This document shows, piece by piece, positions 30,701 through 54,024 of a stretch of DNA of 60,000 nucleotides (positions are counted from its first letter, which is position 1; every line of letters starts with the position of its first letter). Position numbers and translations under genes: made by a program. The notes under the pieces are model-generated. The model worked only from the letters and a program-made list of their open reading frames with translations. It was not told the origin of the DNA and searched no databases. The stretch is from Amphiscolops sp. MND2022 (lineage: Eukaryota): positions 19,036,001-19,096,000 of the forward strand of contig OZ076409.1 of NCBI GenBank assembly GCA_964187785.1, read 5' to 3'.

Positions 30701-33700
30701 ACACGGTGGTATATGACTTATATTTGATCTATCTTTCATTATACATTTCTATACTATATTTCTAAAGTAGCTAAGATTTGATGAACACGGTGGTATATGA
30801 CTTATATTTGATCTATCTTTCATTATACAATTCTATACTATATTCCTAAAGTAGCTAAGATTCGATGATCACGGCCGTATGACTTAAATTGGATTTTTTT
30901 TTCAATATACAGTTCCATACTGTGGGTGTAAAGTAGCTAAGGTTTGATGAACACGGTCGTATATGACTTATATTCGATCTATCTTTTAATATACTTTACT
31001 ATACTATATTTCAAAAGTAGCTAAGATTTGTTGAAAACGGTCGTATGACTTATATTCGATCATTTGTTTAATATAATGTACCATACTAAAGGTCTAAAGT
31101 AGCTAACATTTAATGAACACGGTCGTATAGGACTTATGTTTGATCTATCTTTCATTATACAGTACCATATTATCGTTGTTGATATTGACAATCAATATGA
31201 ATGGAAACTTCAATGTTCAACTTCAATGGGAAGTTCGTTTGAGTTGTCAAAGTAGTTTCAGTTTGTTTATATCTCCAGACATCGTTGAATCAACTCGCTC
31301 ATGTTTCAGTTGATTCTGTGGCGATATTGACCACTATTAGGACAAATTAGAAACTTCTAAGTTCAACATGGATTGGAAGGTCGTTTGAGTTGTCAACATA
31401 GTTTCAGTTTGTTTTTATCACCAGACCATTCGATCTATCTTTCAATGTACGGTACCATATCATAGGTCTAAAGTAGCTAGGAATCGATGAACACGGTCGT
31501 ATAGGACTAAAATTCGTTTTATCTCTCAACATACAAAACCACACTATGGGTCAAGTAGCTAAGATTTAATCAACATGGTCTTGTCGGTTTTATATTCGTT
31601 CTTTCTCTCAATATACAGTACCATACGATAAGACTAAAGTAGCTAAGATTCAATGAACACAGTCGTATAGGACTTACATTCAATCTATCTTTCAATATAC
31701 ATTTCTATACTAAATTACTAAAGTAGCTAGGATTCGGTGTATTCGATAGTATTGGACTTTTATTCAATCTCTTTTTCAATATACAGTTCCATTCTATAAA
31801 GTAGCTAAGTTTCGATGAACACTCTCGTATAGGGCTTAAATTCGATCTATCTTTCAATATACAGTAAAATTTTATAGGTCTAAAGTAGCTGAGACTCAAT
31901 TAACACGATCGTATAGGTTTTATATTCGATCAGTCTTTCAATATACAGTACCAAACTAGAGGTCTAAAGTAGCTAAAATTTAACGAGCACGGTCGTATAA
32001 GACTTTTGTTCGATCTATCTTTCAATATTCAGTACCATAGTATAGGTCTAAAGTAGCAAAGATGCGATGAACACGGTCGTATAGGACTTATATTCGATCT
32101 ATCTTTCAATATACATTACTACATTATAGGTCTAAAGTAGCTACGATTTAATGATTACGGTCGTATAGGAATTATGTTTGATCTATCTTTCATTATACGG
32201 TACCATATTATAGGTCTAAAGTAGCTAAGATTTGATGAACACGGTGGTATATGACTTATACTTGATCTATCTTTCGTTATACATTACTATACTATATTTC
32301 TGAAGTAGCTACGATCCGATGAACACGATTGTATGACTTTTATTCGATCTTTTTTCCAGTATACAATTCCATACTACAGGTCTAAAGTAGCTAAAATTTA
32401 TTGAACACGGTCGTATAGGGATTATGTTTAATCTATCTTTCATTATACGGTACCATATTATAGGTCTAAAGTAGCTAAGATTTGATGAACACGGTCGTAT
32501 ATGACTTATAGTCGATCTATCTTTCAATATACATTACTATACTATATTTCTAAAGTAGCTAAGATTCGAGGAACACGGTCGTATGACATATGTTCGATCA
32601 TTTTTTCAGTATACACTACCATACTATCTTTCTAAAGTAGCTAAGATTCAAGGAACACGGTCGTATAGGACTTATATTCGATTTATCTTTCTATATATGG
32701 TACTCTAATCAAATTCCAAAGTAGCTAAGATTCGAGGAACACGGTCGTATGACATATGTTCGATCATTTTTTCAGTATACACTACCATACTATCTTTCTA
32801 AAGTAGCTAAGATTCAGGGAACACGGTCGTATAGGACTAAAATTCGTTTTATCTCTCAACATACAAACCCACACTATGGGTCAAGTAGCTAAGATTTAAT
32901 TAACATGGTCTTGTCGGTTTTATATTCGTTCTATCTCTCAATATACAGTACCATACGATAAGACTAAAGTAGCTAAGATTCAATGAACACAGTCGTATAG
33001 GACTTATATTCAATCTATCTTTCAATATACATTTCTATACTAAATAACTAAAGTAGCTAGGATTCGGTGAACTCGATAGTTTTGGACTTTTATTCGATCT
33101 CTTGATCAATATACAGTTCCATTCTAAAAAGTAGCTAAGATTCGATGAACACTCTCGTATAGGGCTTAAATTCGATCTATCTTTCAATATACAGTAAAAT
33201 ATTATAGGTCTAAAGTAGCTAAGACTCAATTACCACGATCGTATAGGTTTTATATTCGATCAGTCTTTCAATATACAGTTCCAAACTAGAGGTCTAAAGT
33301 AGCTAAGATTTAACGAGCACGGTCGTATAAGACTTTTGTTTGATCTATCTTTCAATATTCAGTACCATAGTATAGGTCTAAAGTAGCAAAGATACGATGA
33401 ACACGGTCGTATAGGACTTATATTCGATCTATTTTTCAATATACATTACTACATTATAGGTCTAAAGTACCTACGATTTAATAATTACTGTCTTATAGGA
33501 ATTATGCTTGATCTATCTTTCATTATACGGTACCATATTATAGGTCTAAAGTAGCTAAGATTCAAGGAACACGGTCGTATAGGACTTATATTCGATTTAT
33601 CTTTCTATATATGGTACTCTAATCAAATTCCAAAGTAGCTAAGATTCGAGGAACACGGTCGTATGACATATGTTCGATCATTTTTTCAGTATACACTACC

Positions 33701-36491
33701 ATACTATCTTTCTAAAGTAGCTAAGATTCAGGGAACACGGTCGTATAGGACTAAAATTCGTTTTATCTCTCAACATACAAACCCACACTATGGGTCAAGT
33801 AGCTAAGATTTAATTAACATGGTCTTGTCGGTTTTATATTCGTTCTATCTCTCAATATACAGTACCATACGATAAGACTAAAGTAGCTAAGATTCAATGA
33901 ACACAGTCGTATAGGACTTATATTCAATCTATCTTTCAATATACATTTCTATACTAAATAACTAAAGTAGCTAGGATTCGGTGAACTCGATAGTTTTGGA
34001 CTTTTATTCGATCTCTTTTTCAATATACAGTTCCATTCTAAAAAGTAGCTAAGATTCGATGATCACTCTCGTATAGGGCTTAAATTCGATCTATCTTTCA
34101 ATATACAGTAAAATATTATAGGTCTAAAGTAGCTAAGACTCAATTACCACGATCGTATAGGTTTTATATTCGATCAGTCTTTCAATATACAGTTCCAAAC
34201 TAGAGGTCTAAAGTAGCTAAGATTTAACGAGCACGGTCGTATAAGACTTTTGTTTGATCTATCTTTCAATATTCAGTACCATAGTATAGGTCTAAAGTAG
34301 CAAAGATGCGATGAACACGGTCGTATAGGACTTATATTCGATCTATTTTTCAATATACATTACTACATTATAGGTCTAAAGTACCTACGATTTAATAATT
34401 ACTGTCTTATAGGAATTATGCTTGATCTATCTTTCATTATACGGTACCATATTATAGGTCTAAAGTAGCTAAGATTTGATGAACACGGTGGTATATGACT
34501 TATATTTGATCTATCTTTCATTATACATTACTATACTATATTTCTAAAGTAGCTAAGATTTGATGAACACGGTGGTATATGACTTATATTTGATCTATCT
34601 TTCATTATACAATTCTATACTATATTCCTAAAGTAGCTAAGATTCGATGATCACGGCCGTATGACTTAAATTGGATTTTTTTTTCAATATACAGTTCCAT
34701 ACTATGGGTGTAAAGTAGCTAAGATTTGATGAACACGGTCGTATATGACTTATATTCGATCTATCTTTTAATATACTTTACTATACTATATTTCAAAAGT
34801 AGCTAAGATTTGTTGAAAACGGTCGTATGACTTATATTCGATCGTTTGTTTAATATAATGTACCATACTAAAGGTCTAAAGTAGCTAACATTTAATGAAC
34901 ACGGTCGTATAGGACTTATGTTTGATCTATCTTTCAATATACAGTACCATATTATCGTTGTTGATATTGACAATCAATATGAATGGAAACTTCAATGTTC
35001 AACTTCAATGGGAAGTTCGTTTGAGTTGTCAGAGTAGTTTCAGTTTGTTTATATCTCCAGACATCGTTGAATCAACTCGCTCATGTTTCAGTTGATTCTG
35101 TGGCGATATTGACCACTATTAGGACAAATTAGAAACTTCTAAGTTCAACATGGATTGGAAGGTCGTTTGAGTTGTCAACATAGTTTCAGTTTGTTTTTAT
35201 CACCAGACCATTCGATCTATCTTTCAATGTACGGTACCATATCATAGGTCTAAAGTAGCTAAGAATCGATGAACACGGTGGTATATGACTTATATTTGAT
35301 CTATCTTTCATTATACATTACTATACTATATTTCTAAAGTAGCTAAGATTTGATGAACACGGTGGTATATGACTTATATTTGATCTATCTTTCATTATAC
35401 AATTCTATACTATATTCCTAAAGTAGCTAAGATTCGATGATCACGGCCGTATGACTTAAATTGGATTTTTTTTTCAATATACAGTTCCATACTATGGGTG
35501 TAAAGTAGCTAAGATTTGATGAACACGGTCGTATATGACTTATATTCGATCTATCTTTTAATATACTTTACTATACTATATTTCAAAAGTAGCTAAGATT
35601 TGTTGAAAACGGTCGTATGACTTATATTCGATCATTTGTTTAATATAATGTACCATACTAAAGGTCTAAAGTAGCTAACATTTAATGAACACGGTCGTAT
35701 AGGACTTATATTTGATCTATTTTTCAATATACTTTACTACAGTATAGGTCTAAAGTAGCTACGACTTTTTGAACACGGTCGTATAGGAGATATGTTTGAT
35801 CTATCTTTCATTATACGGTACCATATTATAGGTTTAAAGTAGCTAAGATTTGATGAACACGGTCGTATATGACTTATATTCGATCAATCTTTCAATGTAT
35901 ATTCATTACTATAATATATTTCCAAAGTAGCTAAGATTCGATGAACACGGTCGTATGACTTATATTCGATCTTTTGTTTCTGTATACATTACCATACTAT
36001 ATTTCTGAAGTAGCTAAGATTCGATGAACACGATTGTATAGGACTTATATTCCATCTATCTTTCAATATACTGTACCGTGCTATTTTTCTAAAGTAGCTA
36101 AAATTCGATGAACACGATTGTATAGGACTTATATTCCATCTATCTTTCAATATACCGAACCGTGCTATTTTTCTAAAGTAGCTAAGATTCGATGAACACG
36201 GTCGTATGACTTATATTCGATCTTTTTTTAGTATACAGTTATATATCATAGGTGTAAGGTAGCTAAGATCCATTGAACACGGTGGTGTAGGACTTATATT
36301 CGATCTATATTCCAATATACTTTACTACACTATAGGTCTAAAATAGCTACGCTTTAATTATTACGGTCGTATAGGATTTATGTTTGATCTATCTTTCAAA
36401 ATACAGTCCCATTCTGTAGGTCTGAAATAGCTAAGATCCATTCAACACGGCGGTGTAGGACTTATAATCGATCTATATTTCAAAATAAAGT
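27765..36491 (-). repeat. 84-bp satellite array, right arm (reverse orientation), organised in ~1.3-1.5-kb higher-order repeats; resumes at 54025-54075
   Basis: AAAGTAG at 29007, 29091, 29175 (period 84); variant blocks recur at 28662/30167/31705/33035; a ~250-bp TK-upstream segment is interspersed near 28135, 29638, 31175 and 34957. Confidence 0.95.
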
Positions 36492-38232
36492 TGTCGTAAG
36501 CATTAGAACCAACTATGCCATCATTTTGGCGGTTACAATTAAGCTTACTAGCTGAACTGTCTTTAGGGTGAATATTTTGCAGTCCTTCGGAGTTCACTTC
36601 CGGTCTCTCGGACGGAACGTTCCATCTATTCTGAGTCGAGTGTCCCGATCCGGCACTTAGAGCGGATTGAATCTGAGGCAATATCTGATTGCTAATTGCA
36701 TCACTAATTGCCCTTTGAATCTGGGAATTGACACTACACATCATATCATCTAACTCCCTTGACAGTCTTGAGTTCAACTCGCTTGACAACTTGTTAATCT
36801 CAGCACTAGAATTACCTCCAGTTGAAATCCGGCCGCATTCGGCATTATCACTAGGATCTATGTCGCTTGTGGCTGAGTACCTATTTTCACCATTATTCTC
36901 TAATTCATCTGCAGAAGCACTATCAGGCCTTCTGCCAAAATTGCTACTAACACTTTCATCTCTCTCATTTCTGTTGAAATGGTTTTCTCCTAACATGATA
37001 TCGAGGTTTTCTATGTCAGATAGCATCTCTATCCCTCTTGACTTCCTAGCCTTCTTTTGTCTTCTCGTAGTAGGCATTAAGAATTTGAGGTTGAATAATT
37101 TATTGGTGGTCTAGGTTTTGCAATCTATAAGAGCGAAACAAACTGAGTTTGGGTATCATAAGAAAACTTGTGTCCACCTCTCGGAACGGGTGGGTATATA
37201 TACTCCCGAGAGGATAGAATTTACATATTTTGGTACAATTCCCGCAATTTACAAATTCCTCAAGTCATAAGATTAAGGCACAACACTGATTAGAATGAGG
37301 CGGTTAGCACCTTATCAAAGATCCTTAGGAATTCATACTTGCTAGGGTCACGAAGTTATATCTTTCCATTTGAAAACATCAACAATATTACTACATATCA
37401 TCATAGTTGGGTAGCATCGGCAACAAACATCAAACAAATAACATAGCACAACTATCTAAGGAATGTTCATCACGGAATGCTGTCACGTGCCTGCTCAAGT
37501 CGGCCGTTGCAGCAAATAAGTAGCTTTAGCATAAATAATGAAACAAAATACAACATGTCCTAAATCGGCCATTGGACTTTAATTCATTCAGGGTGAATGG
37601 TCTAGTTAGTCCAAAAGATTGGTACTAATAATTGGGCTGGAATAGGGATACTAATTATTTCAAGCAACGTAAAAGCACTAATTATTAACTTCAGATGTAA
37701 ATAGAAGACTTACATGACTACTAAACACTACAACATTATTAATACAATAGGTTGCAACAATGATCAAAGAAATGGCCTATTCCGGCCATCTGCCTAGTAT
37801 TCCAACTAATTAATGCACCATTAAGACAAACGGCCATATCCGGCCAATTGATTAGAACAGCATTGCATCATGAAATACTCGAATATGATTGGTTGGTAAT
37901 TTAGGCTCAAGTGACGCTCTCGGACTGAAAGCTACGTACACTCGAACTCGTTTCCTTTAAGCCATTTAGTAGCTTGCATTGAACTGTAATTTACATTGAA
38001 CATTGTTATTTTACAACTTGCAACTTCACTTGTCTAATGTATTATTAGCAGACTAATACACATTGTACCATAATGAAAAATGTAGTTAACCTAAACAAAC
38101 GTAAATATTGAGAGTAAGTTTTCAGAGTTTAGCGTAAACCTGTTTAAAACGTGGGTAGGGTTCCGGGTATAACCTCTTGACTGGTTGCTGAAGTCGTTAT
38201 TAGAGTGCCATCACAGGCGGCAGCCTGCGACA
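36492..38232 (-). repeat. 3' LTR (contains an orphan gag 5' portion and the 3' end of ORF3)
   Basis: Direct repeat of 52284-54024 with about 14 substitutions counted by eye. Confidence 0.93.
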
Positions 38233-38968
38233 CTGCGGGTGCTATGAATAGAAAAGAGCCGGCATTTAGTCCATTTTCATAGGCATCTCTCCTGATTCTT
38301 GTTATGTACTCTGGCTCTCCTCGTGGTTTAGATCTCTCGACATACCAGTCCACCTTTTCCCTTTTGATTGCTTCCACTGACCTGCCGCAGACCATACAGC
38401 CAGAATACAGCTTCGTACTGACGTTTTCATAGGGTCTTGTATTCTGCACATGATAAGAGGCGTGAAAACCTCCCATTACTGGCTGCATAATAGGAGTGTC
38501 TGAGCTAGGCCCCCTCTCGTGATCAGGGGGTGACATTGGTGTGTCTGGGATTGGCAACAAAGTTTTGCAGATTTCTATGCGTGATGTTCCTGCTTTTTTC
38601 GGCGGGGCGTAGCACATTTCTTTGTCGAAATACCTGTGATCCAACTTTGGGGTAATATCAGTTTGTACTTGAGCCGAACTTGGACCAGCTTCCAGTTCGT
38701 CTTCCACGGGTTCGTCCATAGTCATGATCCTGCCCGCTATTAGCATGGGACTTGACGTGACTTCTCTTTCGATCCTTGCCACGAGCTGCTCTGTGTCCGT
38801 GGAGCAGTCTGTTTCCCAGCCAGATGATTCGTCTTCATCGCTAGATATATAGATGACGGATCTTTCGGAGTCATCAGAGTCCGATTCTTCTAAGCCAAAT
38901 AGTTTCCTTGAGAGGTTAAATTTGTTCATTATGATTTTCTTGGCAATTTTCGAAGCTAGCTGAGTCAA
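38144..38968 (-). CDS. Accessory ORF3 of the retrotransposon, unknown function (acidic N-terminus, CxxC)
   Basis: 274-codon open frame (first ATG 38929), sense to pol, ending 89 nt inside the 3' LTR; no signal peptide or transmembrane stretch, so not env-like. Confidence 0.65.
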   Translation of the reverse strand: MTQLASKIAKKIIMNKFNLSRKLFGLEESDSDDSERSVIYISSDEDESSGWETDCSTDTEQLVARIEREVTSSPMLIAGRIMTMDEPVEDELEAGPSSAQVQTDITPKLDHRYFDKEMCYAPPKKAGTSRIEICKTLLPIPDTPMSPPDHERGPSSDTPIMQPVMGGFHASYHVQNTRPYENVSTKLYSGCMVCGRSVEAIKREKVDWYVERSKPRGEPEYITRIRRDAYENGLNAGSFLFIAPAVSQAAACDGTLITTSATSQEVIPGTLPTF

Positions 38969-39199
38969 CCGTTTATCGATGAATTATGAGATAGAATGAA
39001 TTTATCAATTTTAGGAGACTAGCCGAGTTCGGCCTTTTCCCCGACGATTCGTTTTGGCGGCAGAATTCTTCGGTTGATCCTCCTAATCCGACGTAAACAT
39101 TCCTGAATGGAATCCCATAATTAGTCGGCTATCTTTGATAGTTCAATGTTTACCCCTCATCAAAAACTCCGCTTGGAGAGGTGTGAATAACACTCAAGT

Positions 39200-39520
39200 T
39201 GTTAAAACCAACTTCATGATTTTCAAGTGGGTAATTAACAGGTCGCTTGAAGGTAGTTAACGGAGCGCGCCGTAACTTCATCTCAACATAGCGTTAGCCA
39301 ATCGGATTCTTCCGTAGATAAATTGAAAATTAATAAATAAAATGGCGGAAAATAATAATTCCGAATAATCCAAAATGGCGAGTTTCTAACTAAGGGTAAT
39401 AAGGGCAACTGGACAAAATGGTAAAAAGGAATAGGGCAAACGGTCATAAGCGGCCACTAACTAACTAAGCTGTAAATAGTGCATGCTTCCTGTACATTTC
39501 CCTGGCAGACTCCATGTACA
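39200..39520. promoter_or_regulatory. Putative bidirectional promoter between ORF3 and the antisense gene
   Basis: Lies between divergent ORFs; CCAAT at ~39298, YY1-like AAAATGGCG at ~39339 and ~39372. Motif-level inference only. Confidence 0.3.
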
Positions 39521-39973
39521 ATTATAAATATGTAAATAATTACATAATAGGAGTCTGATAATTTCTTCAGCCACGAACTCCAACTTCTAATTCTATTATC
39601 CCATTTTAATTCCAGTTCAATTCCGATTATTTTACTTCTGCTTTCTTTATCTGGAATTCTTCATCAGACAGCTTTCGCTACTCATCTTTAGCCTCTCCAA
39701 CAATCTTCCTCCCTGAAGTATCCCCAGGATCCGTCCCTGATCCGAATTCGGCCAAATTCTACATTTCTGGAGTCTGATTGGTTCGACATCGATAGGCGAA
39801 GCAGGGCAGAATGTCTTCAGTTGAAGGTTGGTTTGCTTTGGTTTTGAACTTAATTTAGCTTGATCAAGGCTAAATTTGTTCACAAAATGCTTCCTGTTTC
39901 CATTTATAAACACGTGATATCACGATTTATTCAAATTTTCAAAGTACTTCCGGAAGTTTTCTAACGCGGCAAA

Positions 39974-42900
39974 ATGGATTTCTTTCGAGGAAGCTCACCG
40001 CCAAATTTCATCTCCTTCTGTTTAGAACATCAGAAAGTTGATGAACCACAAGTCCAAAGCAACACTACAACTGGCAACCCCACTGGGCCTCTTCAACGTT
40101 CAGTTCCCATTTCAATGCCCAGCAGTGTACCTTCTCCCCCTCCATTTCCCCCAATTAGAGCTGTTCTCAGTCAAACGGCGCCGATGACTGCTGACTCTCC
40201 CTTCAGTAATGAGAGCAACAATGATGTCACCACTTATGCGGATGAGATGGTTCAGCGGATGGAAACTTCCCAAGGTCTCATCGATGATGGTCTTGCTCGC
40301 CACGATGAAGAAGGTCCATTTACGGATCAGGTCCCAGCGGCACAGGTCACAATTCAGGATCCTGAGTTTGTACGCTCAAGCACTCCAAATCCATCCAACC
40401 AGTCTGGGGCTATAGTAGTCAGCCTTTCCCAGCTTGAATCATCCCTCTCCGTTGTGCCAAAGACACAAGCTGACCTCCCTGAATTACAGGTCAACCAGGA
40501 CCAGACTCAAGAGGTGTCTGAAACTTCATTCCTTCAGTCTGAAGGGAATGCTTCATCCTCAATCATCGAACCGCCGCCACTCCCTGGGAGAAATGATCAG
40601 ACCAAAGTCTCTGGAGAATATAGCGACACCAATCAAACGCTGGAAAGTGCAAGTCATTCCGAAATACCTGCACTGTATGGAACAAACCCCTTCGACTCGG
40701 TTCCACTATCTAGGGGAAGTAGCGAATCTGGGTCTGAGAATCATGACCCGGGCCTACCGGGCACGTCAAGGGCAGGCCTACCGGTACAAGGAGAAGTTTT
40801 GCGAGATCTGTCAGGACGAGGTAGGGCAACCCTGAAACAGTATTTTGAGACTGAGGACCCATACACCTTCCCAGTCGGACAAAGAGTCGTTGCCTTCACT
40901 GAGCCACAAGTTTACCATTTACTCCGAGTTTTGACTGATGAGGCTATAAATATGACTTGTTCCACTATGGAGAAGATGGTAATTGGAGCTGTCAGTGGGA
41001 CACTTGCAACTGCCCCTTCACGGACTGAAAAATTTCGGTCAGTAGCTCGTTCCTCTACCCCAGGTCCCAATCAGCGTGTTGGATCCAGCTCCGAAGGGAT
41101 ACTGACTGAATATGATTCAGGGTCAGGATCCCAAGCTGACACGAGTATGCTTCAGAATGTCAGTGACTTCTTCAATCCAGATGAGAGTGATGGTGCCACG
41201 GAGATGGCTCTAATTAACCAAGCCTTTGGCATAACTGCTTCTGGGAGTTCTCCTCCTGTACCACAACCGGGACAGTCACAAGGCCTTTCTGAGGAAGGAA
41301 CTGAGTCTGCTGAGAAGAGTAGCCTCGATGCCACATTATCTGAGGTCCGTAACCGGTCTCCTACCCAGAAGCCCCGTCAGGGAGTTGCGACAGCCAAATC
41401 CACTAGAGCCAAGAGGGGACCAAAGCGCAGAGTACCCATGAGGGAGGAGTTTTTCTCCAACATAAGGTGGACGAGGTCTTTCATCTCAGGGCCAACTGGC
41501 CCTCTCCACAATCCACACATGGTATGGTGCCACATGTGCAAGAAAAACTTCAGCATTAAAACCAAGGGCACAGTTGAAATCTTACGCCACCACAGAACAG
41601 AGAAGCACCTACGTCGTGATCAAAGGTGGAGATATGAGCACCTTAGAACAACTGATTCAGTGACCGGAAAGATACAACATCGGGTTCGTGGGAGGAATGA
41701 CAAAATCCTCAGCAAGAGTGAACTAGCCCACGAACTGCCTAAATTCATCCACACTGAGCTCATCGATGTAGGAGAGAGACACCCCTTTTATGAGGATTAT
41801 CTGAAGGGCCATACCTCCGCACCTGTTACGCCTCAGTCGCGATTGCGGACTCAGATTTGTCTTGTTGGAGACTTTGTTCAGAGTTCGGGAGACCTGGCTC
41901 TACTTCGTCAACTGTGGGCGAGGGCTGCAACTACACAGGGTACCAAGCGGCCTTCCAGGACTTCGATTGGAGTGAAGATCATATAATGGTAAGTTTATTC
42001 AACTGCTCCTCATAGAGTCATGGTTAACATAACAGAGGGTTAGAAAAGCAGCAGCACATAGCCTCCCAATTTTGTTCCATTTCAGGCCGTCTTCCAACAC
42101 ATCTTCAATTGCATGATGGAAGACATATCTAATCTGGTTATCGCATCTCAACACTTTGGGATATGTCCCTCCGATTCTGGAATGGTGCCCAGCGTTGTCG
42201 GGTCTTCATCTGCCGGAGTGGTCTTACCGGCACTGGGCTTAGTGAAGAACTGGGCTCTCTGTCACGGCTGTTGTCCGTCATTTCTACAACCCCCGATGTA
42301 GTCGCCATCTCAGGATGCGCCGTCGACCTGATCAGGACAGTGGACAAGCATCCCACTTATCCTCGGGGTGTGCAGAGCTGCTTCCGCTTCGAGTGCCTCG
42401 ACCTCCAATCGCTGATGCACAAGATGAATTACAGTGTGTTTGGCCACATTGACATGTTCTCGGTGCTTCAATGCCTGCTAGTCTCACTTGGCGGGAGCCT
42501 CTCAGAAGACTGGGTCAACGAATCAGCTGAACTCGTTCGAGTAAGTTCACTTTGTGAATTCAGTCTGTAAGGTATTAGTGTGCAAAGATAAACTACACCA
42601 ATTGGCCCCTTGATCCTAAGAGCTGTAATATTCTAGGCGATTACAACTTGTACACTCGAAGTGAAAAGGATACCAGATTTGTGCCGGGACCTGCTGAAGA
42701 AGTGGAAGTCAATTCTACGATACCTTTCGGTCCATTCTCGCAGACAGGAAAACCAAGGAGTCCACAATAAGGTTACACCTCTTTAATGGTACTTATTTCC
42801 TTTAGGAGGAGTCCATGTTAATTGCTACCCTTTTGATAAGGTGGGCAGAGTTATTTGTCTCGTATTCCTCGTGTCTTTTACAGGTCCAGAGTTTTGAGTG

Positions 42901-44201
42901 GTCTCTCATCATGGACAACTTCTTCACTGCCAAACTAGAGCTGTTCCAGCGTCTGGTCAGCGATTGTGAGTATTTCCTATTTCGTGGTAGTCACTCTGGT
43001 CAGTTGTCCCTTTAAGGGTTTTTATCTTTGCATTTCAGACGTCACCAGTTTCACTATCAATCTAGCTCAAAGACGGGACGCTTCCTTTTTCCTGTGCGGG
43101 GAAGTATGCAGGTACATCAATCGTCTCTGTTTTCGTGTTTTCCGACCCGACACTGTGCCATTAGAGAATGCTTGGTTTCTGTTAATGGACTTCCAGCTTG
43201 GCCAAGGCACACTTATGGACGATGAAGACTTCCTGGTGCGACTTAAGATAGCCAGCAGAGTTGCCACTGCCTGTAACCTGAAAGCAGCCGGGCTCCACTT
43301 TAACAAAAAGTCCAGTACGGCAGCCATTGCCAAAACAGCTGAGGTGGCGAAGTCAGATTTTGTGTCCAGCGCCAAGGACTTTATCAAATTTCTGTTGGCA
43401 GGGGTCCTCCAACATACAGAGTTCACTTCCGACCTTATCAAGGGATTAGCCGCGTTCGACCCCTTTATTTTGTTCCAAAGACCTATGGATGTTGCCTTAC
43501 GTCATTTCGACTATCTGTATTCGACGTTCCAGCTGCGTTCCTGGGTCTCTGCATCAAGTGAGTCGGCTTGCCGAGATGAATATGTGGCCTTGTTGGACTA
43601 TCTCCGTGCTAATCATTCTACTGAATTCGTTTCCACCAGTCATCCTCCTGATCTCATTGACTTTTTTATGGGCTTAGATTTCCTTCAAACCCAAGACCAC
43701 ATTTGTTACTTGTTCAAGCTGAGCTGTTTGTGTATAACATCTGTTAGCCCCGAGTATCCCCCAGTGTCTTTTGGAAAGATTGACACTAGAGGACTTCAGT
43801 CTCGTTTGGCAGACGTTATCTTGCCCTGCCAAAGTTACTTGACATCAGTGCCTGATTCCCTGCTTGCCTGTTGTACTGAGTCCCGCCTTGAGAAGTTCTG
43901 TCATTTGTCCACTTCGTTTGGACAATCAGGCTTTGCCGCCGATTATGACCCTTGGACCTTCGTAGACGGTTTCGGCCGTTCTGCTATTTACAAGACTCTT
44001 GTGGCTTCTCATCGTTCTGTTCTCGCTGGGTCGGACTTCCATTTTAGGAGTCCCACTCTTCCTGATGTTTCTTCCGTGCAAGACGCACCCGCTGTCAAGC
44101 TGCCTAGTGAAAACAAGCGTAGACGAATGAAAAGGAGTTGTTCCCGTAGTAGATCCTCATCTGTCATTGAAGAGTCTCCTGCTGGTGGCTCTAAAACTTA
44201 A
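39974..44201 (+). pseudogene. Spliced antisense gene inside the Gypsy element: disordered N-terminus, BED-like zinc finger, hAT-transposase-like body; exons ~39974-41988, 42086-42540, 42637-42965, 43039-44201
   Basis: VWCHMCKKNFSI..EILRHHRTEKH; phase-compatible GTAAGT/GTAAGT/GTGAGT...AG introns; frameshifts near 41922, 42160 and 42785; AATAAA near 44387. Confidence 0.7.
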
Positions 44202-44447
44202 TTGTACATATGTATTTATGTACTTACAGGCTGTAAACTTTGCTGATTTTCTGTTTGTAATATTTGTTTCATCTTGTTGTTCTTGATTTCCTGATCCCGT
44301 ATTTATTTTCCTTGCAAGGGATCGTCCAAATGTTCCGTTATTTATTCAGAAAATACTGCCATATGGGACTGATTAAAAAGAGAAAAAATAAAAGAGAAAA
44401 GAGCATAACAGTTCAGGGTTAATTTCCTGAACCTAATTTAATTTTCT

Positions 44448-47400
44448 CTAGTAACTGTAGTCTTCTGAGTAGTTTGGGTTGGGATTAGGCCTGAGATTAT
44501 ATTTCCCTCCTCTAGGACTCAGACTTTCATTTCTAGCATCGTTTTCAGATATTTCGGGCACGATAATATCATCCCCCCTTTTCGGAGAATTTTGTGCATC
44601 GCTTTCGGTTCTAAAATTTTCATCGAGGAAAATTTCTTTGTCTTTTAGGCTGTCTGCCTTATCCGGCAAGGGTTTTTGATGGCTTTTTGGGGAATTGGCC
44701 GGATTCGGCCAATCAGGTTCTTCATTTCTAGACTGTTCACTAGCTTCGTTTCTTGTAGTGACGTCATCAATTAATCGTTCATTCCGGCTATGCGACGCAC
44801 GATCGGCAAAATTTGATTCATCACTCGTGATTACATAATCCTCTTCATTCTCGTGTGCGTCACTTGCATTCGGTTGTGCCGCATTCGGTTGTTCGCCATT
44901 CGGCACGCTAGTCGGAATAGGCTCGTTGTCTCGTGTAACTAGCTGCTCGCCAAAATCTGTTTCCCACGTTATGACGTATAGGTCATCTTGCGGAATGACA
45001 ATTTCTTCGTCTGGCTGCAGACGTTGTTCTCGGAAATTGTCCTCAAGCGGTTGATTGGGGACAAATTTTTTAAGACGGATCCGATGCAGAATTTGGGTCT
45101 TGTTCGTGTTAATCCGTCGTACTATATAGTTTTGATTTGGCAAGACTTTTTGGACTAAAAATGGTCCAACCCAACGGTAATCACGGAATGGAATTTTTGA
45201 TCCTTGATTATCCGCTTTGGGCTGTAAGACAAAACAGTATTCGTTCTCCTTCAGTGGAGCGGCTTTTGCTTTGCGGTCGTAATATTCTTTGTACTTGATA
45301 TACGACTGCATAATGTTCTGCTTTGTTTTGTCAATCAAGATTTTTGTCCGGTTTTGGATTTCTTCTGCAAATTCGGTTGTGGGGTTGATCTGCTCATTTG
45401 GGTTATTTCCAAGTTTGTGATCCAAGATATTAAATGGAATTCTTCCATGAAATACTCTCGTCGGTTCACAACCGATGCTGGCGTGATAACTAGTATTATG
45501 ATTCAGTACTGCTATTGGCAAGTATTTGTGCCACTGTCGGCGATATTCCCCACATGCCATTTTAAGATTTGTTTTCAATGAGGCATGAGTTCGCTCCAGT
45601 TTCCCAATTGTCTGCAGGTGTTGTGTCGTTGCACATTTGAGTGTGATGCCCAAAATCTGCGTAACCTCCGCGATAATTGTAGAAGTAAATGCAGTACCTT
45701 TATCAGTGATAAGAGTTGTTGGTAGATATGAGTGTTTAGTTATGATGTCAATGAGCGCTTTTGCTACATTGATCGCTGATGCGTCCGTGAGGGGATAGGC
45801 GAACAAATATCTGGAGAATACATCAATTGCTGTTAAGACGTTTTCATACCCACCACTTGGGGGAAGATTCGGCAATAGGTCTATTTGCATGGCGTCTTCA
45901 GGTCCGAGGTCCCATTCGGGCAAGTTGAGTAGCTCAGGTGTGATCGTTGCGTTAGGGACTCTTTTGTCTCTGGCACATTGTTCGCACCCTTCTACCCACT
46001 TTTTGACGTGTTTAGCCATGCTAGGGTAGTAATACCTCTGTCGAATTTCCTGCAGCATTTTTGAAATCCCAGGATGTTTATGCGCTGTCCCGTGAAGAGA
46101 TTGGAGCAATTCCTGGAGTAAATGTTGCGGGAGTAAAATTTGATGCTATTTAACGTTCCCTGTTTCATCGAAATATTGCCTTGTCAGGATTTCATCCTTT
46201 AGTACAATTCGATCCAGATTGTTTGCGTAATGTCTATATCGGGCATCCTGGTGCAGTAGATTTTCTGAATACTCTTCATGAAGCAGTTTTGCTTTCAATT
46301 GTTGTAGTACCGCATCTTTGGATTGCTCGATAATGATGTGGTTCGTTTTCCTCAATCGGACTTGTGTATCGGGGTGTTGCTTGACCAGATTTGTTGACAG
46401 AGTTTGTATAGTAACAGTGGGCTCATCAGTTGCTGGATTTTTCCTGATTGCTTCTTTTCTTGCACAAAACTGTTCTTCTGTCTCATCGTCGTCATTGGTG
46501 TAGAAGATTTCTTCGTCTGGCTGCAGACGTTGTTCTCGGAAATTGTCCTCAAGCGGTTGATTGGGGACAAATTTTTTAAGACGGATCCGATGCAGAATTT
46601 GGGTCTTGTTCGTGTTAATCCGTCGTACTATATAGTTATGATTTGGCAAGACTTTTTGGACTAAAAATGGTCCAACCCAACGGTAATCACGGAATGGAAT
46701 TTTTGATCCTTGATTATCCGCTTTGGGCTGTAAGACAAAACAGTATTCGTTCTCCTTTAGTGGAGCGGCTTTTGCTTTGCGGTCGTAATATTCTTTGTGC
46801 TTGATATACGACTGCATAATGTTCTGCTTTGTTTTGTCAATCAAGATTTTTGTCCGGTTTTGATTTCTTCTGCAAATTCGGTTGTGGGGTTGATCTGCTC
46901 ATTTGGGTTATTTCAAAGTTTGTGATCCAAGATATTAAATGGAATTCTTCCATGAAATACTCTCGTCGGTTCACAACCAATGCTGGCGTGATAACTAGTA
47001 TTATGATTCAGTACTGCTATTGGCAAGTATTTGTGCCACTGTCGGCGATATTCCCCACATGCCATTTTAAGATTTGTTTTCAATGAGGCATGAGTTCGCT
47101 CCAGTTTCCCAATTGTCTGCAGGTGTTGTGTCGTTGCACATTTGAGTGTGATGCCCAAAATCTGCGTAACCTCCGCGATAATTGTAGAAGTAAATGCAGT
47201 ACCTTTATCAGTGATAAGAGTTGTTGGTAGATATGAGTGTTTAGTCATGATGTCAATGAGCGCTTTTGCTACATTGATCGCTGATGCGTCCGTGAGGGGA
47301 TAGGCGAACAAATATCTGGAGAATACATCAATTGCTGTTAAGACGTTTTCATACCCACCACTTGGGGGAAGATTCGGCAATAGGTCTATTTGCATGGCGT

Positions 47401-50400
47401 CTTCAGGTCCGAGGTCCCATTCGGGCAAGTTGAGTAGCTCAGGTGTGATCGTTGCGTTAGGGACTCTTTTGTCTCTGGCACATTGTTCGCACCCTTCTAC
47501 CCACTTTTTGACGTGTTTAGCCATGCTAGGGTAGTAATACCTCTGTCGAATTTCCTGCAGCATTTTTGAAATCCCAGGATGTTTATGCGCTGTCCCGTGA
47601 AGAGATTGGAGCAATTCCTGGAGTAAATGTTGCGGGAGTAAAATTTGATGCTATTTAACGTTCCCTGTTTCATCGAAATATTGCCTTGTCAGGATTTCGT
47701 CCTTTAGTACAATTCGATCCAGATTGTTTGCGTAATGTCTATATCGGGCATCCTGGTGCAGTAGATTTTCTGAATACTCTTCATGAAGCAGTTTTGCTTT
47801 CAATTGTTGTAGTACCGCATCTTTGGATTGCTCGATAATGATCTGGTTCGTTTTCCTCAATCGGACTTGTATATCGGGGTGTTGCTTGACCAGATTTGTT
47901 GACAGAGTTTGTATAGTAACAGTGGGCTCATCAGTTGCTGGATTTTTCCTGATTGCTTCTTTTCTTGCCCAAAACTGTTCTTATGTCTCATCGTCGTCAT
48001 TGGTGTAGAAGATTTGTTCTTCTTGCGACACCCCTGCGGATTGGACATTGATTTCGATTGGTAGTGTTTGTACGTCTTCACGAATTTTCATCACCAATTT
48101 GTCCTTCGGATCTGCTTCTAATCGGGACAAATAGTCGGCAGCTGTATTTTGTGCCCCTGGGATGTGTGCTATGACGAAATTGAATTGAATGACGTAATCA
48201 CACGCGTTCCACAGGGCTGGGGGTATTATTTTTGTTTGAAAAAATCTCGTGACAGCTTTGTTGTCTGTAAGGATGATTGCCGGTTTCGGCGCACCCCAAA
48301 ATATATGTCCGAATTCTTTGAATGCAAAATAAATTGCAAGGAATTCCTTGGCATAAATTGACATCTTTATCTGCGCTGGGGTGAAAGTTTTTGATCCATA
48401 TGCGACTGGTGCATACGATTTCGTGAGTGACGTAAATTTCTGGCTTGGGTCGTCTTCGATTAAGACCGCGTATCCGGCTGCACCAAAACTTGCATCAGTC
48501 ATTAGTGCTATTTGTTTGTTCGGAATGGGTTGTTGTAGGGCCAAGTCGCAACATTTGTCTAGCGCCCTATTGATTTCTTCAAATTGCTGGACTAATTCCT
48601 TCGATACTAGGACCTTTTCGTCACTCTTCAGCATCTTGTAGAATGGAGCAAGGCGTTCTGAAAGTCTTGGGACATAATTCCTGTAGTAGTTTAGGAATCC
48701 CAAATAGCGCTGTAAAGCCTTTTTCGACTTCGGGAATTTAGTCTTTTCCAGAAAGTTTTGCACATTCTGTTTCTGGGGTTTGACGCCTTGTGGGGTAATA
48801 GTCCGTCCGAGAAAATCGATTTCTTTTGCACCGAAATGACATTTGTGCATTGTTAACTTAAGGCCTGCTTCCTGAATGCATTTGAATGTAGCTCTCAGGT
48901 TCGTCATGAGGTGGTCAACATCATTGGCTGCGATGCCGATATCGTCCACATACTGGGCACACTGATCCGCTTTGATGACTTTGTCGAGGTATTCCCTCAT
49001 GAAACTCGAGAATGCGGATAGTGACCGGCTAAGGCCTTGTGCCAAACGTCTGTAGGCGAATGTGCGACTGGCAAAATTGAAAGCCAGCATTTCGATTGAG
49101 CGTTGGTCAGCCATTGGTAGGCAGTGGTATGGCTGCGAACAGTCTAATTTACAGAACAGTTTTTTGCCTGCCAAGTGTTGGGCTGCATCAACTAGTGTAC
49201 TGACGGGATGATTGTTGTTGATATAATCATCCGAGATGAGGTTGTTGATTTTTCTCAAGTCAACCAAGAGTCGGAGTTTCCCGTTCGGTTTCTTTTGTGC
49301 AAATATTGGACTCGCATATTTCGAGAACGGTAGGGTGGTGATGATGCCATATTTGTGTAACATGGCTAATTCGACTAGGATGTCCTCCTTCAGATTGATA
49401 GGAGCTGGAAGGTTTTGACTATAGGCTGGGGAATCGTCCTTAGGTGTCAGTTTCACTTTGAAATCCTCGTTCATGCCTATATCAAATCGGTGTCGTGCAA
49501 AGATGTCATGGAATTCCACTAACAATTCCTCAATTTTCTCCTTCTCTTCAGGAGTAAGGGTGGAATCTTTCCAGTCAAAGTTTTCCAAGAATTTTGCACG
49601 CGATTCTGCATCTGTGGTGGGGTCGAGTGTCTCCAGGTCCTGTAAGGCCTGTAACTCGCGTAGGATTCGTTTTTGTATAGGTGTGTGTTCCTCAGGATTT
49701 CCAGGGTTTTCTGGAGTTGGGAACCAATAATTTTCGGAGTTTTGTGGATTTCTATTGGTTTTGATGAGACTGCTGACATAATGGGCTGCTTGCTCCTGGT
49801 CATTCTGCAAAAGGTGCCAGGTTGATGCCGGATCTACCGGTTTGACATACTTCATCTGTTCTGGCGTCATGACAGAGAAATTGGCAATATGTAGTCCTTT
49901 TTTGAGTTTATAAGGGTGGTCTGTGAAATTGCTCACTGGTATCAATATATTGCCGTCATTCAGAGTGACCAAGGCTGGGCAGAATGTGATGTCGCCTTCT
50001 TCATGTAGAAGGTCGCTCGGTTGCAAAATCCCAGTGACAGCATTTCCAGGGTATAGTAAGGAATTAGTCCGTATTAGGACTCTGTCATTTGGCGGAATGG
50101 GTATTTCAGCAGGGTTGAGGATTGGTTCAAGTACGTTTGAGTACTTATGGTCAGCTGTTTTGAGCTGCATTGAAAAGAACGGGAAATTCAAAATTCCTTG
50201 TCTCATGTCCAGTACTGTATGATTTCGTTGAAGGAACATTAGTCCAATGATCGGTCCTGTTAGATTCTCCATTACTATGAAGATTTCATGGAACTCAATG
50301 TCACCAACCTCAAATTTGAGCTCTATGGTACACTTGGGAGTTTCTAATTGGCCATTTGCGACCATTATTTGAAAATTCGGAGGCGGACCTTCCCGGATAA

Positions 50401-51160
50401 ATGATTGTGGTGATAGAAGTCGGATTTTCCGGAGGTCCATTTCAGGGATTGCACTGGAAAGTGCTCCAGTGTCAATTAGGCCGTCTATGGTTAATTCCCC
50501 GAAGTCCATCGGGAAATACAGCATTCTCTTCTTGCATTTGAGGTTGATACTGGTCGAAAGTGGTATACAGTCTGGTTCACCCTCTTTGGTAATGAGGATA
50601 TTTTGGAATTGTTTCTCGTCCAATAGTGATTGTGGAATTGGTTCTGTACTAGCTTTGTTAGTTTCGGTTCCCAAAGGGTTCGGGAATACTGGATGGTTAG
50701 TACCATCATTCATTTGCCAGTTTTCGATTAGTGCTCTGGTTTTCTTGTTATGGGTTATCGGAGGGTTTTCGTGGACTGTGGTTTGGTAATGGGCTATATC
50801 ATCCAGGACGTATTGGAATTGTAGGAGGTCCTGGTTGTAAATCTCAATGTCCCAATAGGGATCTCTGCCATAATCTGGGTCGATGTACGTTGGATTGTAA
50901 TCGTCGATCAAGGGAATGGGCCTGAATCGGGTTGTAAAGGTGGTTGTGTAGTCAGGATCCCAAACAGGAATTGGTTTTTGGAACAGATGGGTATTATTAT
51001 AGGTAATAACGATGGCCTTCTCCATCTGTTGCTGCCAGACAACAGAGGGGTAAGCCATCAATTTTTGTTGATTTTCATGGAAAGTTTTTGTTGGAGGATC
51101 CGACCTGATGTACTGACGGACGGATATTAGTTGATTGTATTGGAGTCGTGGCGAAGTTAG
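44448..51160 (-). pseudogene. pol: pol polyprotein (aspartic protease, RT, RNase H, integrase), with stops and an internal duplication
   Basis: LIDTGA; LRLLVDLRKIN; YVDD; TDAS..KE..TDN..ADYLSR; H-x5-H..CEQC; integrase IDLL..TDKG..ERTH; GPF motif. Stops at 47981, 47651, 46913 and 46146. Confidence 0.96.
45001..48015. repeat. 1506-bp tandem duplication of the integrase region
   Basis: 45001-46510 repeats at 46507-48015; ATTT microhomology. Confidence 0.95.
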
Positions 51161-51166
51161 TTTTTT
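51160..51166 (-). promoter_or_regulatory. -1 ribosomal frameshift heptamer A AAA AAC at the gag/pol junction
   Basis: TCA AAA AAC TAA ends gag; the -1 frame is open and in frame with pol (51160-51061 = 99 nt). Confidence 0.75.
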
Positions 51167-52271
51167 GACTCATCTTTGTTTGATGAGGATTGGGTATTGG
51201 AGGACATTGGTTTGCTGTGGAATTTAGGTGTCTTAGAGTCAGGGTCAGTGTCTGAAGAGTCTTCAGGCCTGGTACGTTTGGGTTTCAAGTGAGCACCTGC
51301 TCCCTGCCAACATCTCTCCTCTGGACGGTTTTTCTTGCCACAAGTCCCGCACTTAGGGTACGTTTTCTTTTCTGTCGATTTGCCTTGTTAGGCATCTTTC
51401 TCTTTTTTCTTTTTGAGTTTTTCACAGTCTTTGACCATGTGGTCTTTTTCCTTGCAGTAGTTGCAAGTTTTGTCCGACATTTGCCCAGTGGAAAGAGGGG
51501 TTTTAGTCTTAGAAGATGAGGAGGTCATTGTTGCCATGGGTAGGTCGTCTGACTCCTCAAGGGCGTTAAGCTCTAATTCCCTCTCTAAATGAGCAACGAT
51601 TTCGTCGTATGAGCCATTTTCTAATCTGGCCATGTTGACTGATCGCTTGAGTTTTGGAGGCAGTTTTGCGTACAAAAGACTGTCAATCATTTTTTGTGCA
51701 TGGTCGCCAAATGCTTTTTCTGCCCCTTGATTGAGTTCCTCAAGGAAATCCGGTAACTTCGTCGTATTAGGATCGAAGACCAAGCGGTGCCATTTATGCT
51801 TGGCAGTCGCTTGTGACTCGGGTTTGACGTATTTTCGTCGGAAAATGACTAAGACGTCTTCAAGAGTCTGTCGGTTGGTCGAGTTAATATTTCTGAAAGT
51901 CTGAAGAGCATTCTTCCTCAGGAGCGAATGAAAATGATTAATTTTCATCTGTTCAGTCATTTCTGGTTGCATCTTGATCATGGTATGAAACAGATCTTCG
52001 AACAGCTCAAATTTCTCACTTTTGCCATCAAAGGTCATGGTGTTTGAGTTGACCGGGCGTATGGTGAGTTGTTGGGCTGCTGGTCGATTCTGCATATTTG
52101 TCAAGACGTCTGCCAGTCTGGTAATTGGATCAGGGTCAACAACCGTGGCCGGTTTTTCTTGTGCTGGGATCGTTGTGTCAAGGTTGATGTCCTCGTAGGA
52201 CTGATCAAGATGGTTTCGTGATAGAATCCGTCCCGTGAGAAACTCAGGAATTTGATTGGGGGATTCGTTGT

Positions 52272-52283
52272 CTCCTGTCACCA
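52272..52283 (-). promoter_or_regulatory. Primer-binding site TGGTGACAGGAG
   Basis: Directly follows the CA of the 5' LTR; one mismatch from a tRNA-Leu-type PBS (TGGTGTCAGGAG). Confidence 0.65.
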
Positions 52284-54024
52284 TGTCGTAAGCATTAGAA
52301 CCAACTATGCCATCATTTTGGCGGTTACAATTAAGCTTACTAGCTGAACTGTCTTTAGGGTTAATATTTTGCAGTCCTTCGGAGTTCACTTCCGGTCTCT
52401 CGGACGGAATGTTCCATCTATTCTGAGTCGAGTGTCCCGATCCGGCACTTAAAGCGGATTGAATCTGAGGCAATATCTGATTGCTAATTGCATCACTAAT
52501 TGCCCTTTGAATCTGGGAATTGACACTACACATCATATCATCTAACTCCCTTGACAGTCTCGAGTTCAACTCGCTTGACAACTTGTTAATCTCAGCACTA
52601 GAATTACCTCCAGTTGAAATCCGGCCGCATTCGGCATTATCACTAGGATCTATGTCGCTTGTGGCTGAGTACCTATTTTCATCATTATTCTCTAATTCAT
52701 CTGCAGAAGCACTATCAGGCCTTCTGCCAAAATTGCTACTAACATTTTCATCTCTCTCATTTCTGTTGAAATGGTTTTCTCCTAACATGATATCGAGGTT
52801 TTCTATGTCAGATAGCATCTCTATCACTCTTGACTTCCTAGCCTTCTTTTGTCTTCTCGTAGTAGGCATTAAGAATTTGAGGTTGAATAATTTATTGGTG
52901 GTCTAGGTTTTGCAATCTATAAGAGCGAAACAAACTGAGTTTGGGTATCATAAGGAAACTTGTGTCCACCTCTCGGAACGGGTGGGTATATATACTCCCG
53001 AGAGGATGGAATTTACGTATTTTGGTACAATTCCCGCAATTTACAAATTCCTCAAGTCATAAGATTAAGGCACAACACTGTTTAGAATGAGGCGGTTAGC
53101 ACCTTATCAAAGATCCTTAGGAATTCATACTTGCTAGGGTCACGAAGTTATATCTTTCCATTTGAAAACATCAACAATATTACTACATATCATCATAGTT
53201 GGGTAGCATCGGCAACAAACATCAAACAAATAACATAGCACAACTATCTAAGGAATGTTCATCACGGAATGATGTCACGTGCCTGCTCAAGTCGGCCGTT
53301 GCAGCAAATAAGTAGCTTTAGCATAAATAATGAAACAAAATACAACATGTCCTAAATCGGCCATTGGACTTTAATTCATTCAGGGTGAATGGTCTAGTTA
53401 GTCCAAAAGATTGGTACTAATAATTGGGCTGGAATAGGGATACTAATTATTTCAAACAACGTAAAAGCACTAATTATTAACTTCAGATGTAAATAGAAGA
53501 CTTACATGACTACTAAACACTACAACATTATTAATACAATAGGTTGCAACAATGATCAAAGAAATGGCCTATTCCGGCCATCTGCCTAGTATTCCAACTA
53601 ATTAATGCACCATTAAGACAAACGGCCATATCCGGCCAATTGATTAGAACAGCATTGCATCATGAAATACTCGAATATGATTGGTTGGTAATTTATGCTC
53701 AAGTGACGCTCTCGGACTGAAAGCTACGTACACTCGAACTCGTTTCCTTTAAGCCATTTAGTAGCTTGCATTGAACTGTAATTTACATTGAACATTGTTA
53801 TTTTACAACTTGCAACTTCACTTGTCTAATGTATTATTAGCAGACTAATACACATTGTACCATAATGAAAAATGTAGTTAACCTAAACAAACGTAAATAT
53901 TGAGAGTAAGTTTTCAGAGTTTAGCGTAAACCTGTTTAAAACGTGGGTAGGGTTCCGGGTATAACCTCTTGACTGGTTGCTGAAGTCGTTATTAGAGTGC
54001 CATCACAGGCGGCAGCCTGCGACA
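52284..54024 (-). repeat. 5' LTR
   Basis: TG...CA ends, followed by the PBS. Confidence 0.93.

Follow-up and report, generated by a model that had tools for sequence, protein, structure and literature searches.

A predicted five-exon antisense gene, possibly of hAT transposase origin, carried by a Ty3/gypsy-type retrotransposon lineage in Amphiscolops

Our analysis of a 60,000-nucleotide stretch of the Amphiscolops sp. MND2022 genome (the window) points to a standing third gene in a lineage of Ty3/gypsy-type LTR retrotransposons. We consider it rather probable that this gene, which is antisense, separates pol from the 3′ LTR, and has five predicted exons, encodes a protein of 1293 residues (the cargo protein) that is likely hAT derived and acts as an accessory factor that binds DNA and not as a nuclease.

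The host element spans 17.5 kb, and its sense strand is the minus strand of the window. Its 3′ LTR (36492 to 38232) and 5′ LTR (52284 to 54024), both on the minus strand, are 1741 bp long with TG..CA ends and are 99.2% identical; a PBS-like sequence, TGGTGACAGGAGAC, comes next to the 5′ LTR on the sense strand, and the flanks of the element, AAAGT and ATAGT, match at four of five positions, as after integrase-mediated insertion. The gag open frame (51388 to 52902, minus strand) starts within the 5′ LTR, while pol (44448 to 51169, minus strand), comprising protease, reverse transcriptase, RNase H, and integrase, contains a 1.5-kb tandem duplication (45001 to 46518 and 46507 to 48023). With its direct LTRs, gag, and Pfam matches on the minus strand to RVT_1, RT_RNaseH, Integrase_H2C2, and rve, in that order, the element fits Ty3/gypsy, a class assigned here by domain order.

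As an earlier note on this DNA had proposed, a gene of ~4.2 kb runs opposite to gag (52902 to 51388) and pol (51169 to 44448), from an ATG at 39974 to a TAA stop at 44199 to 44201 on the plus strand, where all of its features lie. Downstream of a spacer and presumed promoter (38984 to 39973), exon 1 (39974 to 41988) encodes the long S/P-rich N-terminal half that had also been described, a basic stretch, a zinc finger, and a linker. The finger, C-x2-C-x16-H-H-x4-H at 41528 to 41608, is conserved in both cargo clades; it had been called BED-like, but Pfam zf-BED was not matched at E values up to 10. The three introns recognized previously, with junctions 41988/42086, 42540/42637, and 42965/43039, do have GT..AG borders, but a fourth (42772 to 42883) had been missed, and what had been taken for a single exon (42637 to 42965) contains in-frame stops and is split by it. 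In the resulting model of five exons and four introns, intron 1 (41989 to 42085; 97 nt, phase 0) is followed by exon 2 (42086 to 42540), with a predicted β1-β2-β3-α-β4-α-β5 core; by intron 2 (42541 to 42636; 96 nt, phase 0) and exon 3 (42637 to 42771; 45 codons); by intron 3 (112 nt, phase 0) and exon 4 (42884 to 42965; 82 nt); and by intron 4 (42966 to 43038; 73 nt, phase 1) and exon 5 (43039 to 44201), which encodes an all-helical domain and then a disordered basic/serine-rich tail. The 3′ untranslated region (44202 to 44447) converges on the end of pol. The copy in the window is broken, as had been noted: judged against at least 15 of 20 sister copies, it lacks 1 nt after 41926 in exon 1 and 31 nt after 42160 in exon 2.

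Under the five-exon model, an unbroken frame of 1293 codons is found in 5 of the 20 sister copies, which is more than chance would be expected to leave. GT..AG borders are present in 81 of the 84 introns of 21 copies. Nine loci of divergent families, whose cargo is only 30 to 40% identical, were also examined at the equivalent positions, as extrapolated from a protein alignment, and all 36 of their introns have these borders. Moreover, where a relative is without intron 3 or intron 4, its sequence is precisely what splicing is predicted to yield. In P0048, intron 3 is absent and exons 3 and 4 are fused, and in P0090, intron 4 is absent and QDYREAF spans the junction, as predicted; the latter is another organism's protein, since its best match in the Amphiscolops genome reaches only 29 to 31%. 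Among the longer database proteins, those matching exon 2 were five open frames, four of which stay in frame across intron 1 while one is internally deleted, with no true intronless form of the gene among them, and none matched exon 5. We predict that splicing joins the five exons of the antisense gene. A genomic RNA retains introns that it carries in antisense orientation, so that they survive reverse transcription, and the persistence of introns in this gene is possible only because of its antisense orientation.

The gene is colinear with the LTR and pol in all 20 sister copies, 14 of which align from the outer LTR end, and at all 10 divergent-family loci examined, exons 1 to 5 keep their order and face an integrase frame that runs toward them on the opposite strand. 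This colinearity demonstrates that the gene travels as part of the LTR element, and it bears out the suppositions that other full-length copies would carry it and that it belongs to the retrotransposon instead of being nested there; in every copy and family examined, the gene is placed inside the element. Genome-wide first-look searches returned 6142 and 7806 candidates. Antisense additional open reading frames are recognized by two traits, an antisense position that separates pol from the 3′ LTR and presence in most copies of a family and in related families, and the gene shows both.

A comparison of substitution rates across copies, suggested earlier, yielded dN/dS values between subfamilies of 0.14 to 0.17, a ratio that may overstate the constraint because synonymous sites in the cargo have diverged by 18.9%, roughly double the figure for noncoding sequence. 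Fixed differences comprise 150 synonymous and 48 nonsynonymous changes (43/27/154 by codon position), and the nonsynonymous divergence of 3.5% compares with 9 to 10% in the LTR, spacer, and 3′ untranslated region. Five of 20 copies retain an intact cargo frame, and 7 of 20 are open across a shorter integrase stretch. These figures indicate that the codons of the antisense gene are under purifying selection, and selection of this strength in a family of hundreds to thousands of copies implies that the protein matters to the element.

Where the protein came from is harder to read. Descent from a hAT transposase, the origin first suggested, failed in all sequence and profile tests. Pfam matched neither the cargo protein, at E values up to 10, nor 46 homologues, sequence and profile searches of the PDB with the cargo protein gave no match, a PF14291 search of the Amphiscolops genome and an ESM Atlas search with exon 5 returned nothing, and none of 10 homologue clusters carried a name. 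Genuine hATs are abundant in the same genome (2215 first-look PF05699 candidates, with open frames of 578 to 690 codons), and six of them share the invariant residues D260, W262, D328, C347, T411-R412-W413, S415, and E655 (L057 numbering). Against these six, hhalign gave probabilities of 0.3% and 1.2%, staying below 3% at looser settings, and it lined the cargo finger up with the hAT finger at a probability of 0.25%. The hAT signatures D..W, CxxH, TRWNS, and SERxFS, invariant in the six, had no counterpart in the cargo by Pfam or profile-profile comparison.

Predicted structure provides the evidence on the other side. Fold comparisons were run part by part with each exon alone, which weakens every one of them, and Hermes was the target named ahead of any search. 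The model of the finger plus exon 2, a poor one (mean pLDDT of 54, pTM of 0.30) built on a related family's open frame through intron 1, has its strands and helices in the order found in an RNase H-like core, with the finger folding as strands and then a helix (pLDDT of 56 to 64). With this model, Foldseek placed Hermes at ranks 1, 4, and 17 of 350,542 chains, none of them significant (E values of 0.062, 0.36, and 0.69). For the exon-5 part, Hermes was the only long structural match, covering 159 residues below significance; the good exon-5 model gave a best E value of 2.1 in Foldseek against the PDB, with Hermes outside the top 50. Both modelled parts map onto Hermes colinearly, with structural scores in the range that the tools call a common arrangement. 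The nearest named ESM-Atlas clusters were all of BED/hAT type (ZBED/DUF4371/DUF659) at scores of 0.75 to 0.78, values below 0.9 serving as leads only. We infer from these models that the layout of the cargo protein, a finger followed by an RNase H-like core and a large helical domain, mirrors that of a hAT transposase, and descent from such an enzyme is weakly supported.

The same results leave some room, though we think it unlikely, for a real, selected, and spliced accessory gene that is not hAT derived, namely, a zinc-finger protein of host, viral, or de novo origin whose likeness to Hermes reflects a common β-sheet core plus helices. The uniformly negative sequence and profile tests, the unexceptional structural scores, and the failure of Foldseek with the best model, that of exon 5, all speak for such an origin. 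Against it, a target named beforehand ranked first for one part and gave the only long match for the other, in colinear order, and every named ESM-Atlas neighbor belongs to a BED/hAT family. Far less probable is that the cargo protein has kept transposase or nuclease activity, giving the element a second, DNA-based route for moving or for cutting targets. A fold-level likeness to Hermes and conserved acidic residues (E65, D97, and D133 in exon 2 and D140 in exon 5) could be read that way, but the residues invariant in the local hATs have no detectable counterparts in the profile comparison, terminal inverted repeats are absent, and the LTRs and near-identical flanks fit integrase-mediated insertion. 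An ordinary nested DNA transposon, or a single event in which the window copy transduced a host gene, is rejected as exceedingly improbable despite the abundance of hATs in the genome, since no pair of terminal inverted repeats and no 8-bp target duplication was found at the gene borders, the gene is colinear in all sister copies and divergent loci, its candidates number in the thousands, and it is under purifying selection.

Because the hAT signature motifs seem to be gone, the accessory protein that we favor is probably noncatalytic. In this scenario, basic stretches would bring it into the nucleus, where its finger would bind DNA; the target might be the element's own DNA or chromatin, and binding could stimulate transcription, counter silencing, or direct integration. 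On a wider reading, to which we give about an even chance, a DNA transposase was tamed by a retrotransposon and not by a host: an old, intron-bearing, hAT-derived gene would have become stable and selected across a Ty3/gypsy lineage, in thousands of copies and more than one organism, diverging faster than pol and being reshuffled between elements by recombination. Sequence identities of the cargo and of reverse transcriptase/integrase already disagree.

Antisense additional open reading frames between pol and the 3′ LTR are already known from plant Ty3/gypsy elements, among them Retand (TRP28/Transposase_28), maize Grande, and rice RIRE2, according to the available text of two reports (PMC11963269, PMC7264820). 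As described there, these frames are sited and oriented in their gypsy-type elements as the Amphiscolops gene is and, like it, are present in most copies of a lineage; a nuclear or DNA-binding regulatory role has been proposed for them, and one bears a transposase-named domain (PMC11963269, PMC7264820). In contrast, the Amphiscolops element is not from a plant, its cargo has no match to PF04195 (Transposase_28) at E values up to 10, the protein is 1293 residues long, has a finger, and resembles hAT proteins in its layout, and the gene has five exons with intron positions conserved over deep divergence, whereas the word "intron" is absent from the main texts of the plant papers (PMC11963269, PMC7264820).

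The order of parts in hAT transposases such as Hermes (PDB 8EDG, 2BW3, and 8SJD) is the same as that predicted for the cargo: a CxxC..H..H finger, an RNase H-like β/α core, a large helical domain, and a C-terminal region. Yet in the cargo no Pfam or profile similarity to these enzymes, none of the signature motifs, no inverted repeats, and no 8-bp duplication were found. Host genes derived from hATs (ZBED, DUF4371/FAM200) correspond to the named ESM-Atlas neighbors ZBED, DUF4371, and DUF659, but they are fixed single genes, whereas the cargo is copied in thousands by a retrotransposon. We know of no sequence relation between the cargo and the antisense genes of HTLV. Nevertheless, HTLV-1 HBZ and HTLV-2 APH-2 are likewise antisense accessory genes that lie in the 3′ portion of a retroelement and have a regulatory function in the nucleus; as far as the available text describes them, they are driven by the 3′ LTR (PMC11963269). 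The Amphiscolops gene, by contrast, begins ~1.7 kb inside its element, and it is much the larger. Bdelloid rotifer LTR retrotransposons offer a nonplant case of conserved additional open reading frames shared between element types, but an antisense, intron-bearing, or transposase-like gene is not evident in the available part of that report (PMC5408684). Our full-text literature search found no description of a spliced, antisense, transposase-like gene of this kind in an LTR element.

The conserved spliceosomal introns would make this gene a clean natural example of the antisense-intron rule. That it may stem from a competing class of mobile elements is testable, and if the hAT link is true, domestication of transposases is not confined to hosts, and selfish elements recruit one another's proteins. 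As the cargo protein can be expressed alone for DNA-binding tests, what antisense accessory frames do, a question of long standing, would become directly testable.

Two further features of the region deserve mention. Just upstream of the ATG, CACGTG and TTCCGGAA are present in all 21 copies. A TATAAA at 39905 and an AATAAA at 44387 to 44392 are confined to the subfamily of the window copy, and the TATA box and AATAAA were dropped as conserved signals for that reason; the earlier note had attributed a poly(A) signal to the gene, and an ATTAAA that lies a few bases upstream of the AATAAA (both near 44373 to 44392) is kept in 18 of 21 copies; either may serve as a poly(A) signal of the antisense gene. 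Finally, the sense strand of the element contains ORF3 (38144 to 38983, minus strand), 279 codons from stop to stop and extending into the 3′ LTR. Pfam assigned it to no known family, and an open frame of at least 270 codons occupies this site in 15 of 21 copies.

Our data established the plus-strand gene at 39974-44201, hereafter the cargo gene, as a fixed part of the LTR retrotransposon in which it lies antisense to gag-pol. Its region is colinear with the window in all 20 sister copies sampled elsewhere in the genome (10 kb each), 14 of which align starting at the outer LTR end. Ten divergent loci were drawn from families with cargo identities of 77-83% or as low as 30-39%, and in every one of them exons 1 to 5 lie in the same order with the integrase convergent on the opposite strand; other copies thus carry the gene, as the earlier note had asked. 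No pair of inverted repeats was found at the borders of the cargo gene, and this finding, together with its presence in sisters and divergent loci, argues against a nested insertion with its own TIRs and TSD, or one missing from sister copies. First-look candidates in the 1.07-Gb genome number 487 for the DNA of exon 5, 6142 for the protein of exon 2, and 7806 when an exon 5 relative (29% identical) serves as the query.

Codon comparison furthermore showed constraint acting on the predicted cargo gene. To discount decay after insertion, the count was restricted to fixed differences separating seven copies of one subfamily from four of the other, giving 150 synonymous versus 48 nonsynonymous changes (43/27/154 by codon position). 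The dN/dS ratio called for earlier proved to be 0.14 to 0.17 between the two subfamilies, with a dS of about 0.21. Nonsynonymous divergence is 3.5%, versus 9-10% in the LTR, spacer, and 3′ UTR and 6-9% in the introns, and synonymous divergence, at 18.9% over the whole gene between the copies at loci L019 and L026, amounts to roughly double the noncoding rate, a discrepancy that may exaggerate the contrast. CpG decay is a possible cause of this synonymous excess; G+C is about 50% in the exons and 31-38% in their surroundings.

The gene itself consists of long open frames on the plus strand that had no match in a Pfam search. By reading the sisters in three frames, we placed five exons at 39974-41988, 42086-42540, 42637-42771, 42884-42965, and 43039-44201, separated by predicted introns of 97, 96, 112, and 73 nt. 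The three introns proposed previously keep their junctions, but their count was wrong, as a fourth intron lay hidden within a middle exon containing stops. This model yields an uninterrupted 1293-codon frame (3.9 kb), from ATG to stop, in 5 of the 20 sisters; over a 2-kb stretch of the integrase, 7 of the 20 remain open. Evidence for the introns is comparative, drawn from sequence: GT..AG borders occur in 81 of 84 introns across 21 copies and in 36 of 36 across nine divergent loci, where exon ends were extrapolated from protein alignment and intron lengths are 65-128 nt, with a single exception of 250 nt. The tenth locus, L044, was omitted because its exon 1 match is fragmented. Among library relatives of the protein, P0048 lacks intron 3, its exons 3 and 4 being continuous, and P0090 runs straight from exon 4 into exon 5, reading ..QDYREAF.. 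where the predicted junction is ..SDYVTSF... The best match of P0090 in the Amphiscolops genome is only 29-31% identical, and by this measure it therefore derives from another organism. A gene antisense to the element retains its introns through the RNA intermediate.

The five-exon protein bears out two features described at first reading, opening with an S/P-rich N terminus of about 500 residues, followed by a basic stretch and then a finger, C-x2-C-x16-H-H-x4-H (41528-41608, plus strand), that is nearly identical across the cargo clades. HMMER searches against 1.84 billion representatives returned 440 hits at E ≤0.001 for exon 5, and the exon 2 query gave 114; the best 150 of the 440 do not exceed 418 residues, share 26-90% identity with the query, and appear to be single-exon gene calls.

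The earlier note had derived the protein from a hAT transposase, naming Hermes as a comparison. Sequence and profile methods are silent on this origin: Pfam matched neither the exons nor 46 homologues, PDB sequence and profile searches with the cargo protein found nothing, and hhalign, run with alignments of exon 5, exon 2, and the finger against six genuine hAT transposases from the same genome, gave probabilities of 0.3%, 1.2%, and <3%. No hAT signature is detectable by sequence methods. Structural comparison is weak yet consistent. The second structure model came from P0185, whose family shares 79% identity in exon 2; this open frame spans the finger, an in-frame read-through of intron 1, and the end of exon 2. 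Its overall pLDDT is poor (54) and reaches 73-87 across a predicted β1-β2-β3-α-β4-α-β5 succession, the order of strands and helices of an RNase H-like core. The named neighbors listed for P0185 in the ESM Atlas are BED/hAT-type clusters, save rank 2, which has no common family; their scores of 0.75-0.78 are leads only. Two nonoverlapping parts of the protein match Hermes in colinear order, no single result being significant. Because Hermes had been named beforehand and two separate parts match it colinearly, we consider that the cargo protein probably descends from a hAT transposase. The genome is rich in genuine hAT transposons (loci L047-L063, on many contigs), whose open frames of 578-690 codons carry the full set of signature motifs, and PF05699 has 2215 first-look candidates in it.

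Such a putative protein would act in the nucleus, binding DNA noncatalytically to the benefit of the element, which may lie in activation, anti-silencing, or targeting. Antisense ORFs are known from plant gypsy elements and retroviruses (excerpts of PMC11963269 and PMC7264820), and the passages retrieved by full-text literature search, including those two and PMC8220671, contain no description of an LTR retrotransposon with an antisense gene that is hAT-like and contains introns.

The cargo and pol differ in how far they have diverged. Between two cargo clades the difference is about 70% in exon 5, about 60% in exon 2, and about 37% in integrase. Within clades, identities conflict between element pairs (loci L013-L046): L019 and L043 are 95% identical in integrase and 78% in exon 5, L019 and L026 88% and 95%, and, for one and the same pair of subfamilies, integrase divergence spans 3.7% to 26%. 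This conflict points to recombination between related elements, which look like mosaics.

The window copy is broken, as had been noted from its frameshift: relative to the sisters, 1 nt is missing after position 41926 and another 31 nt after 42160, the latter bases (about 31, at 42160-42162) being present in all 20, and the copy is therefore dead. Its host element, on the minus strand, has LTRs of 1741 bp at 36492-38232 and 52284-54024 (99.2% identical, TG start, CA end), flanked by AAAGT and ATAGT (4/5 alike). Between them lie gag (52902-51388) and pol (51169-44448), and because Pfam places protease, RVT_1, RT_RNaseH, and Integrase_H2C2/rve in this order on pol, the predicted layout is of the Ty3/gypsy type. 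A 1.5-kb tandem duplication (45001-46518 and 46507-48023, 99.1% alike) doubles the integrase and breaks the pol frame. Each LTR holds a minus-strand open frame of about 200 codons (36442-37110 and 52284-52902), open in many sister LTRs; that of the 5′ LTR has an ATG straddling the LTR/PBS border and continues across the PBS-like TGGTGACAGGAGAC into gag. On the sense strand, an ORF of about 280 codons (38144-38983, minus strand) without a Pfam match is situated between the cargo gene and the 3′ LTR, which it overlaps by 88 nt, and a frame of at least 270 codons is open at this position in 15 of 21 copies. The element is located in or beside satellite DNA, an 84-bp (and 166-bp) tandem-repeat array with higher-order structure (30000-36490) abutting the 3′ LTR on its outer side.
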